Positions 43,508 to 46,391 of a stretch of DNA of 64,000 nt are shown piece after piece. The translations under genes and the position numbers were made by a program. A model generated the notes under the pieces. That model saw only the letters and a program-made list of their open reading frames with translations. It made no database searches and was not told the origin of the DNA. Within the stretch, counting starts at the first letter, position 1. Every line of letters starts with the position of its first letter. Source of the DNA: Escherichia coli (lineage in GTDB: Bacteria; Pseudomonadota; Gammaproteobacteria; Enterobacterales; Enterobacteriaceae); assembly GCF_050320075.1 (NCBI RefSeq), contig NZ_CP190018.1; one strand, 5' to 3'.

Positions 43508-44650
43508 ATGACAAATAAACACCCATCATTGTTTTCTCCTTTTATGCTGACAGAAAAAATAAAGCTACGTAATCGTATCGTTATGGCTCCTATGACAACC
43601 TGGTCAGCTAATCCTGATGGAACCATCTCTGAGCAAGAACTCGAATTTTATAAACGTCGCTCACAAAATGTTGGTTTAGTAATAACAGGATGCACCTATG
43701 TCACGCCAAGCGGCATTGGGTTTACTCATGAATTTGCCGCGTATGACGACCGTTTCATTAACAGCCTTGAAAAGTTAGCAGCTGCAGCCAAAAGTGGCGG
43801 TGCTCCGGCTATTTTGCAGATTTTCCACGCTGGTAATAAAGCCATCCCGGAGCTTGTGCCAAATAACGATGTTATTAGTGCCAGCGCATCAAGCGTAAAA
43901 TCTGGTGACTTTATGAAGAGAGTGGTACAAAGCAGGGAAATGACTGAAAACGAAATTCAGGAAACCATTAGAGCATTCGGAGATGTCACAAAAAGGGCGA
44001 TTAAAGCAGGTTTTGATGGCGTTGAACTTCATGGTGCGCACGGATTCCTTCTACAGAATTTCTTCTCCCCTCTATTTAACCAGCGTAATGACCGATGGGG
44101 AGGAGATCTCGAAAGACGTATGCGATTCCCGCTGGCCGTATTACAGGAAGTAAAAAATGTAGTCTATGAATATGCGACAAAGCCCTTTGCCATCGGTTAC
44201 AGAATATCTCCTGAAGAATCTGCAACAGGGGGGCTGCGGATAGAGGATACTTATAAACTCCTTGATCGGCTCATTGCATCCGGTATTTCGTATATACATA
44301 CCTCGCTGGTCAGTATTAACGATAGCTACCCTGTTGAGTCGCCAAATGGCCCCCGAACTATTGAATTGATTTTAAATCATATTGCAGGCAGAGTGCCGGT
44401 AATCGCTGCAGGTAAAATACGCACACCGTCTCAGGCTCAAGAAGCAATTTCCACTGGCCTGCCACTTGTTGCGATCGGTAAAGGGCTGGTGATAAATCCA
44501 GAATGGGTGACTTTAGCTGAATCAGGTAGAAGCCATGAAATTCAAACAACCCTTAATCCACAACTTGTTCCTGAATTAACCATTCCGGATAAACTATGGG
44601 ATCAAATTCAGGCATCGAAAGGAACTGGCTGGTTTCCGTTAATGGATTAA
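43508..44650 (+). CDS. Old-Yellow-Enzyme family NADH:flavin oxidoreductase, 380 aa
   Basis: OYE motifs: RIVMAPMTT, GFDGVELHGAHGFLLQNFFSP, and a C-terminal TIM-barrel GKG segment. Confidence 0.8.
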   Translation: MTNKHPSLFSPFMLTEKIKLRNRIVMAPMTTWSANPDGTISEQELEFYKRRSQNVGLVITGCTYVTPSGIGFTHEFAAYDDRFINSLEKLAAAAKSGGAPAILQIFHAGNKAIPELVPNNDVISASASSVKSGDFMKRVVQSREMTENEIQETIRAFGDVTKRAIKAGFDGVELHGAHGFLLQNFFSPLFNQRNDRWGGDLERRMRFPLAVLQEVKNVVYEYATKPFAIGYRISPEESATGGLRIEDTYKLLDRLIASGISYIHTSLVSINDSYPVESPNGPRTIELILNHIAGRVPVIAAGKIRTPSQAQEAISTGLPLVAIGKGLVINPEWVTLAESGRSHEIQTTLNPQLVPELTIPDKLWDQIQASKGTGWFPLMD

Positions 44651-45121
44651 ATATCTATTACTCTCCCGAGTGTAAAACTATCAAACCAATGAGTAACCGA
44701 TACAGCCTCGCAAATTCTTTCAGATAATTAACCCGTCACTGCGGCACGTTCTCTCATAAGGCGTGCCTGCTGTGTAATCCAGTATGGATCCAGCATAGTT
44801 GACGGCTTAATAGACTCAATTCCTTTCCCAGGTTACCAACAACGATATCTTGTATAACACCCCAGAAGATACGACATTATGATGAGATGAGGTATGCTCC
44901 TCAGCGCCAATCAACGCCAGGGCTGGGCCAGTTTTGAGATCAGACTCATTCCCGGACTGACTTCAGGCGACATATATCAATGACGTTGGGGCAATAAAAG
45001 ATAGCCGATGTAATACATCTATTCAAATTTGTGATACATGTCAAAAAATTGGTTGACCAAACTCGTTATTTATATAAGGGCACTTACGAAGTGCACTCTT
45101 TTTTAAAGCGAGGAAGTACCA

Positions 45122-45223
45122 ATGAAAGAGAATAAAGTACAACAAATCAGTCATAAACTGATTAATATCGTTGTTTTTGTCGCAATTGTAGAATACGCCT
45201 ATTTATTTCTCCATTTCTATTAA
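45122..45223 (+). CDS. ykgR: Small membrane protein, 33 aa
   Basis: ATG preceded by a GAGGAAG ribosome-binding site. Translation MKENKVQQISHKLINIVVFVAIVEYAYLFLHFY has a single helix. Found by hand; too short for the ORF track. Confidence 0.55.
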   Translation: MKENKVQQISHKLINIVVFVAIVEYAYLFLHFY

Positions 45224-45552
45224 TAACGGCAATAAACTGTTCACTTCAGTGATATTAAAAAATATGCATCCTCTCCCTTTTTTGTAAGTAATTATTATAT
45301 CCGTGGGAGAGGAATACACGCTGTCCGGCAATCAATCAAACTGCGATAAATCATCGGCCAGTAAAATGGAGATAGCCTCCATTCTCGAAAAATTCATACT
45401 CTCAGCGAAACCATCACTCATCAAGGCGTTTATGGGAGCGTCGCCAATGGCTGCTAACAATGCCAGACTTCCCCGTTGCCGAAATTCCACATACCACAAA
45501 TGGTCACAGGGATTGGGTGTTGAAATGATCCGGATGAGCATGTATCTTTATG

Positions 45553-45570
45553 GTTATGTTATAACATAAC
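45553..45570. promoter_or_regulatory. Zur box (zinc-uptake-regulator operator) upstream of ykgM
   Basis: Perfect 18-bp palindrome GTTATGTTATAACATAAC ending 12 nt before the ykgM start codon. Confidence 0.7.
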
Positions 45571-45581
45571 AGGTAAAAATG

Positions 45582-45845
45582 ATGAAGCCCAATATCCATC
45601 CTGAGTATCGTACTGTGGTGTTCCACGACACCAGTGTTGATGAGTACTTTAAAATCGGCTCGACTATCAAAACAGACCGTGAGATTGAGCTGGATGGAGT
45701 AACGTATCCGTACGTGACAATTGATGTCTCTTCTAAATCGCACCCGTTCTATACAGGGAAGCTGAGAACAGTGGCATCAGAAGGAAATGTTGCACGATTC
45801 ACCCAACGTTTTGGTCGTTTTGTTAGCACGAAAAAGGGGGCATGA
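45582..45845 (+). CDS. ykgM: Ribosomal protein L31 paralogue (type B, lacks the zinc ribbon), 87 aa
   Basis: [32 protein letters not shown]... is an L31-type sequence without the CxxC pairs. Zur box immediately upstream. Confidence 0.9.
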
Positions 45846-45985
45846 TGAAAGTCCTTAACTCTCTGCGTACCGCAAAAGAACGCCATCCAGACTGTCAGAT
45901 TGTGAAGCGAAAAGGACGGCTATATGTGATTTGTAAATCTAATCCACGTTTTAAGGCCGTTCAGGGTCGTAAGAAAAAACGTTGA
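45845..45985 (+). CDS. ykgO: Ribosomal protein L36 paralogue, 46 aa
   Basis: Hand translation [46 protein letters not shown]. The start overlaps the ykgM stop. Too short for the ORF track. Confidence 0.85.
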
Positions 45986-46036
45986 TTCAAAATTCGACGA
46001 ATTAACGATATTTGTCTGATTAATAATCAGACCGGA

Positions 46037-46075
46037 TTAATGTTGGTGTATTTATTACACCAGCATTAATTTTCC
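46037..46075 (+). terminator. Probable rho-independent terminator of ykgM-ykgO
   Basis: 14-bp stem TTAATGTTGGTGTA / TACACCAGCATTAA with one mismatch, loop TTTAT, then TTTTCC. Confidence 0.55.
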
Positions 46076-46391
46076 TGGGGATGTATCTTCCTGTTCATTT
46101 AAAGTCAACTGCCTGACGTTTCTCTCCGAATATTCCATTATATTAATGTTGACTTGTTGACCAGGTGCGCCCTGTATGCTGGCATCAACTCTCTTTTAGA
46201 CTGAACACGCCACTCAGTTTCCTCCCTTTGCGACGCAGCCTGCATTTACACTCAAACGGTTAAGATGATAAATGTGGTAAATCTGTTGGTACTGACATAA
46301 AAACGTTTACGCCACAGGAACGGCCTGATCCACCGGTAACCCCATCGCCGACGTTCGAGTGCCAGTTAGAGTAACGCGCACAGATGACTGA

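Follow-up and report, generated by a model that had tools for sequence, protein, structure and literature searches.

Introduction

Characterised small membrane proteins mostly bind and modulate larger membrane proteins, and AcrZ, MgtS, KdpF, CydX and MgrB are examples of this behaviour. Some small proteins are also handled by the intramembrane protease RseP, whose substrates are generally single-span proteins with an N-in/C-out orientation. For YkgR of Escherichia coli, the discovery paper is said to be Hemm et al. 2008, and chromosomally tagged YkgR is reportedly described in Hemm 2008/2010.

His-tagged YkgR was detected in vivo and analysed by SRP cross-linking, and these data indicate that SRP recognition of YkgR is post-translational (PMC7549839). 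The same study demonstrated insertion by SecYEG or YidC for YohP and extended the conclusion to small membrane proteins in general. YkgR is a class I substrate of RseP that was cleaved in all four assays, among them those with chromosomally encoded RseP and with the purified enzyme (PMC10470546). It has served as a periplasmic anchoring tag, with fusions made at 8-25 mg/L (PMC7558204), and it has been called stationary-phase induced (PMC10502375). The expression and localisation data in these papers refer to tagged or plasmid-expressed protein.

Here we follow up a 33-codon open reading frame (ORF) in a 64,000-nucleotide stretch of E. coli DNA, called the window throughout, which an initial annotation made from the sequence alone had described as an unlisted, ykgR-like small membrane protein with a strong ribosome-binding site. 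The ORF is ykgR itself, and every feature of the family that could be tested was found in it.

Results

Identity of the reading frame

The gene and its ribosome-binding site are as follows.

45122..45223, + strand: ykgR coding sequence (ORF listing; RefSeq CDS WP_000662258.1 at the identical position)
45110..45116, + strand: Shine-Dalgarno sequence GAGGAAG (read from the sequence; its core GAGGAA is invariant in the alignments of all orthologues)

The ORF consists of an ATG, 33 codons in all and a TAA stop, with the product MKENKVQQISHKLINIVVFVAIVEYAYLFLHFY, and it is present on the + strand exactly at 45122-45223, where the initial annotation had placed it. All 33 of its 33 residues are identical to those of b4671 of K-12 MG1655, the founding member, and the exact protein sequence is named YKGR_ECOLI in UniProt. 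In K-12 the ATG corresponds to position 313242 on the minus strand. At the DNA level the window differs from K-12 ykgR by a single synonymous base, codon 7 being CAA for CAG. In a profile search, the NCBIfam equivalog NF041474 matched the protein with 78.1 bits (E = 2.6e-22) against a curated cut-off of 40 bits, with an alignment that spans both in full (residues 1-33, profile positions 1-33 of 33). A local Pfam profile search of the protein gave no match, though precomputed tables list PF28062:YkgR. The RefSeq product name at the corresponding coordinates in matching E. coli records is 'small membrane protein YkgR' (WP_000662258.1). The description 'ykgR-like' can thus be sharpened to ykgR on the strength of RefSeq, NF041474, UniProt and K-12 b4671. 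The description 'unlisted' is right only for the size-filtered ORF track, in which 33 codons fall below the default cut-off of 60 aa, because public annotation has carried ykgR for years. The gene is therefore already known, annotated and experimentally studied, and is an ordinary feature of this chromosome.

Many RefSeq E. coli chromosomes match the window at 100% identity from 44900 to 45600, and this region is present in 5086 of the 5426 complete E. coli genomes. In the matching RefSeq records, ykgR is flanked by a gene for an NADH-dependent flavin oxidoreductase and by ykgM-ykgO.

The DNA upstream of ykgR varies by E. coli lineage. In the window the flavin oxidoreductase gene is intact (43508-44650), other E. 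coli strains carry the large intimin-like adhesin gene eaeH at this place, and K-12 has a ykgP remnant together with an eaeH disrupted by IS3.

Ribosome-binding site, protein architecture and the toxin question

The GAGGAAG lies at canonical spacing, as had been claimed for it, with 5 nt between it and the ATG, or 8 nt if the count starts from GAGG. Pairing of the GAGGAAG with the 16S rRNA 3' end is predicted to yield -7.8 kcal/mol. The predicted architecture of the protein likewise agrees with the charged N-terminus and single hydrophobic helix of the initial annotation, since K2, K5 and K12 precede a segment with a Kyte-Doolittle mean of 2.2. Residues 1-12 carry K2, E3, K5, H11 and K12, and the remainder (13-33) is hydrophobic and aromatic. 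Among 17-residue windows the best is INIVVFVAIVEYAYLFL, to which the mean of 2.2 belongs, and the 19-residue window LINIVVFVAIVEYAYLFLH has a mean of 2.0. With 33 aa, under the limit of 50 aa for a small membrane protein, and one hydrophobic segment of membrane-spanning length, the product belongs to that class. We infer an N-in/C-out topology for YkgR because the three N-terminal lysines fit the positive-inside rule and because PMC7558204 attributes this topology, at second hand, to Fontaine et al. 2011.

The proposal in the initial annotation that a tagged product be sought is answered in part by the literature, where tagged YkgR has been published from plasmid expression (PMC7549839, PMC10470546).

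A small, hydrophobic, single-helix protein could also be a type I toxin-like peptide that damages membranes unless antisense RNA or proteolysis restrains it, and it fits such a role that HokB and HokE share the RseP class I substrate group with YkgR (PMC10470546). However, the Rfam search of 44600-45650 and the promoter scan returned no antisense repressor RNA: no Rfam family matched at E values up to 1, a chance match to IS009 aside, and the minus strand yielded a single promoter-like site, which fits the consensus weakly and is no more than chance would give, bearing in mind that RNAs of unknown families would be missed. The Shine-Dalgarno sequence of ykgR is strong and unsequestered, and the N-terminus of YkgR is without the strongly basic end that is typical of Hok and Ibs peptides. 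Moreover, the yields of 8-25 mg/L reached by YkgR fusions (PMC7558204) speak of high production that is tolerated. A toxin-like role for YkgR is thus highly improbable.

A conserved upstream block with a CRP-like site and a hairpin

Two elements stand out between the upstream gene and the Shine-Dalgarno sequence.

45030..45045, + strand: CRP-like site TGTGATACATGTCAAA (pattern match, 1 mismatch to the CRP core consensus)
45076..45104, + strand: hairpin (core GCACTT-ACG-AAGTGC, 45080-45094) with T6 (45099-45104) (terminator-like match, folds)

They belong to a conserved block that covers roughly the 115 nt before the ATG and that E. coli, E. albertii, Escherichia sp. E1V33 and contig L003 share regardless of the upstream gene, which may be the flavin oxidoreductase gene, the eaeH adhesin gene, an effector-like ORF or a YdgH/BhsA-like gene. 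The CRP-like pattern is not rarer in the 64-kb window than expected by chance (3 matches, 1.85 expected). Its TGTGA half-site is conserved in all orthologues except that of the indel-rich assembly L004. The abstract of Hemm et al. 2010 reportedly states that CRP activates ykgR and that Zur represses ykgMO, and the conservation of the site is consistent with this reported CRP activation. The segment 45030-45045 would then be the activator site for CRP-dependent transcription of ykgR.

The core of the hairpin can be extended to 45076-45100, and the structure sits between the CRP-like site and the Shine-Dalgarno sequence, directly 5' of the latter. E. albertii, Escherichia sp. E1V33 and contig L003 all have the hairpin and its T6. 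In five orthologues, standard pairs make up 91.8% of the pair cells; one pair is compensatory (A:U replaced by G:C), and several other changes create G.U wobbles, for which pairing is possible on the + strand alone. Covariation among these five sequences was suggestive and not significant, as 155 of 500 shuffles reached the observed score. If CRP acted from -41.5, the start site would lie near 45079, and a leader of some 43 nt would open directly with the hairpin. By comparison with known stabilising 5' stem-loops, the ykgR transcript may begin with a hairpin of this kind. In general terms, 45076-45104 could be a stabilising stem-loop in the 5'-UTR or at the 5' terminus, or a terminator-like attenuator. 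More specific roles, in which the hairpin and U6 would form a dedicated regulatory element (an early intrinsic attenuator or an Hfq/sRNA-binding module gating ykgR expression) or in which the lasting linkage with ykgMO would reflect a part played by YkgR in the zinc-starvation or ribosome-remodelling response, appear unlikely.

Separation of ykgR from ykgM-ykgO

The following features lie downstream of ykgR.

45269..45313, + strand: 9-bp G+C-rich stem TCCTCTCCC / GGGAGAGGA with a 27-nt loop (inverted repeat, 100% complementary)
45520-45548, + strand: promoter-like TTGAAA-17-TATCTT of ykgM (promoter-like match)
45553..45570, both strands: Zur-type box TGTTATAACATAAC, a perfect palindrome at the ykgM promoter (pattern search)
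45582-45845, + strand: ykgM, type B L31 (RefSeq transfer; Pfam Ribosomal_L31)
45845-45985, + strand: ykgO, type B L36 (RefSeq transfer; Pfam Ribosomal_L36)

The stem begins 46 nt past the ykgR stop, its arms span 45269-45277 and 45305-45313, and it has a minimum free energy of -19.4 kcal/mol (z = -4.1). A counterpart was found in Escherichia sp. E1V33 and in E. albertii. On the + strand no U-run follows the stem; the - strand has one, 6 nt beyond it. The stem probably delimits the ykgR transcript at its 3' end or protects it there, or it may alternatively be a bidirectional terminator.

The initial annotation had located the ORF upstream of the Zur-regulated ykgM-ykgO, and this is borne out: ykgM starts 358 nt further on along the same strand, and a Zur-type box is present. 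The pattern search found two overlapping matches to this box, with 0.02 expected. The hexamer pair TTGAAA / TATCTT that is listed for ykgMO in PMC3946193 is the same as at 45520-45548. The box and the promoter-like site belong to ykgMO and not to ykgR. The exact YkgR protein is followed by ykgM-ykgO in all 10 of 10 distinct contexts, and the adjacency of ykgR and ykgM is kept in E. coli and E. albertii. In Escherichia sp. E1V33 an integrase-like ORF stands after ykgR in place of ykgM.

This conserved adjacency, with both genes on one strand and 358 nt apart, is what would be expected if the ORF were a leader peptide whose translation regulates ykgM-ykgO. However, ykgM has its own promoter-like site with a perfect Zur-type palindrome just upstream of the gene, a strong stem-loop stands between ykgR and ykgM, and in E1V33 the ORF precedes something other than ykgM. 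Furthermore, purifying selection acts on the amino-acid sequence of YkgR, beyond a need for mere translation, and the protein accumulates and enters the membrane (PMC7549839, PMC10470546). The chance that ykgR is a leader peptide is accordingly very slight. Because ykgM has its own promoter-like site and Zur box and because the arrangement differs in E1V33, we regard ykgR as an independent module that is neither part of the ykgMO operon nor its leader.

Several observations concern the surroundings of these genes. Two unannotated ORFs fill the spacer between ykgR and ykgM, an 88-aa frame starting with GTG (45303-45569, +) and a 69-aa frame starting with ATG (45332-45541, -); both are probably non-coding. 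In E. albertii this spacer is longer and shows little conservation, and E1V33 has other sequence in its place. Downstream of ykgO, ykgL (about 46020-46245, -) is a frameshifted pseudogene in the closest RefSeq genome and an intact 75-aa ORF in K-12. A suppressor of the detergent sensitivity of an E. coli ydgH deletion has been mapped to the ykgM-ykgR intergenic region, as a T to C change at 308,687 of that strain (PMC11705850). Contig L003 carries a YdgH/BhsA-like gene directly upstream of ykgR, and its occurrence there alongside the ydgH suppressor may be coincidence.

Selection on the reading frame and its distribution

The ykgR ORF segment is present in 5072 of the 5426 complete E. coli genomes, with at least 99% identity in 4901 records, and is missing from about 6% of the complete genomes. 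E. albertii and Escherichia sp. E1V33 have kept the frame at its length of 33 codons, its start (ATG) and stop (TAA), and GAGGAA as the core of the Shine-Dalgarno sequence. Contig L003 retains the Shine-Dalgarno sequence and the start, and its ORF is truncated at codon 26 by adapter sequence. The E. fergusonii protein is a V6I variant. In nine between-species comparisons within Escherichia, pN/pS was 0.03-0.23 with mostly synonymous substitutions, and both alternative frames of ykgR are closed by stops. By these sequence comparisons, the reading frame is under purifying selection in the relatives of E. coli.

We further compared ykgR with the 429 ATG ORFs of 16-50 codons within the 64-kb window. 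An equal or stronger Shine-Dalgarno sequence was found in 10 of these 429 small ORFs and an equal or higher hydrophobicity in 4; only ykgR had both, with about 0.09 ORFs expected if the two properties were independent. Because ykgR alone of the 429 combines both properties, the observation from which this analysis started is accurate and not a chance pattern. The idea that the ORF is an untranslated chance frame, whose membrane-like look comes from an A+T-rich composition, draws on the frequency of short hydrophobic ORFs in A+T-rich DNA (4 of the 429 being at least as hydrophobic), but it has a negligible probability given the unique combination with a strong Shine-Dalgarno sequence, the mostly synonymous substitutions between species and, decisively, the published detection and study of the YkgR protein (PMC7549839, PMC10470546), which refutes it.

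The initial annotation had suggested that the frame and its ribosome-binding site be followed across the Enterobacteriaceae. Both are conserved within the genus Escherichia, and neither the protein scan nor the DNA scan described here found them beyond it. When 1.84 billion representative proteins were searched exhaustively with phmmer, no more than nine matched YkgR, and the majority of these represent variants within E. coli, read-through products or chimeras with adapter sequence. Two of the nine, P0021 and P0024, are the only diverged ones; P0021 runs into Nextera adapter where its contig stops, and the source assembly of P0024 is indel-rich. The C-termini of P0017, P0021 and P0022 (L003 4085-4106) are translated Nextera adapter (CTGTCTCTTATACACATCT) at contig ends and are artefacts. 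A degenerate-codon DNA scan covered 100,044 species with one genome each and used the pattern K-L-x-N-x-x-x-F-x-A-x-x-E-Y, in which x stands for Ile/Val/Met (RTN codons). Apart from E. albertii and Escherichia sp. E1V33, it matched nothing but two tiny contigs from assemblies of Firmicutes.

One of the two contigs is contig122 of Sulfoacidibacillus thermotolerans (403 bp), which is near-identical to E. coli ykgR; the other is a contig of Alkalicoccobacillus porphyridii (264 bp, coverage 0.79) that matches the ykgR pattern. Both are almost certainly E. coli contamination. A marginal tblastn match in Salmonella phage SSU5 (45%, E = 0.009) is regarded as chance. As the degenerate scan found ykgR in Escherichia only, these contaminants aside, conservation throughout the Enterobacteriaceae is unsupported, and no YkgR homologue was found outside Escherichia among the 1.84 billion proteins or the 100,044 species. 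Its restriction to Escherichia and its absence from about 6% of complete E. coli genomes indicate that ykgR is dispensable.

About 900 extra BLAST places for the ykgR ORF occur among complete E. coli genomes, O157:H7 included. As a second ykgR gene they were rejected on the one record that was examined (L020 22082-22153), a truncated and frameshifted fragment of 72 nt. It comprises the 3' two-thirds of ykgR with the 3' flank at 89% identity and lies about 19.4 kb downstream of ykgR. This place maps about 80 nt past the end of the window (64000), and PGAP annotates it as an 18-aa 'hypothetical protein'. Because it has no promoter, no Shine-Dalgarno sequence and none of the first 11 codons, and because it carries a 1-nt insertion, it is a pseudogene fragment.

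Discussion

We hold with high confidence that the feature at 45122-45223 is the known E. coli ykgR, a self-contained gene unit whose Shine-Dalgarno-dependent translation gives a 33-residue protein with a single helix. A reading made from the sequence alone had correctly recovered a genuine small protein gene below the size cut-off of the ORF track, and it adds little else. The regulatory module of ykgR is delimited here as a CRP-like site, a hairpin 5' of the ORF and a stem 3' of it, and the restriction of ykgR to Escherichia is shown.

Taken together, the observations are consistent with the following sequence of events. The 33-residue YkgR is translated from the strong and conserved Shine-Dalgarno sequence. 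Its predicted layout is a short cytoplasmic N-terminus rich in lysine (residues 1-12), followed by a single transmembrane helix (roughly residues 13-33) with a conserved Glu24 and an aromatic-rich tail at its end. Published experiments show that SRP recognises the protein once it has been released from the ribosome, and insertion would probably proceed via SecYEG or YidC, by analogy with YohP. They also show cleavage of YkgR by the intramembrane protease RseP in vivo and in vitro. The transcription unit would consist of the upstream block of about 115 nt with its CRP-like site and hairpin, the ORF and the 3' stem-loop, and would stand apart from the Zur-repressed promoter of ykgMO.

As to function, YkgR could possibly bind a larger protein or complex of the inner membrane and modulate it when carbon is limiting or in stationary phase. 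We put this forward tentatively, as a possible rather than a probable role, because of the analogy with AcrZ, MgtS, KdpF, CydX and MgrB and because of the conserved glutamate, Glu24, in the middle of the helix.

These five proteins resemble YkgR in size class and architecture, with no homology to it. YohP (27 aa), YshB, YncL and YoaJ, like YkgR, have fewer than 50 residues and a single helix and are described as associated with stress or stationary phase, and this group shares with YkgR the post-translational recognition by SRP and the status of RseP substrates. There is, however, no sequence similarity between them and YkgR, which is confined to Escherichia and differs from the group in its mid-helix glutamate and its aromatic C-terminal tail. 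The nearest described system is K-12 ykgR (b4671; NF041474; PF28062), which has the same protein, Shine-Dalgarno sequence, upstream block and position relative to ykgM-ykgO as the gene in the window. The two loci differ in what lies upstream of this unit, where the window has the intact flavin oxidoreductase gene (43508-44650) and K-12 has the ykgP remnant and eaeH/IS3.
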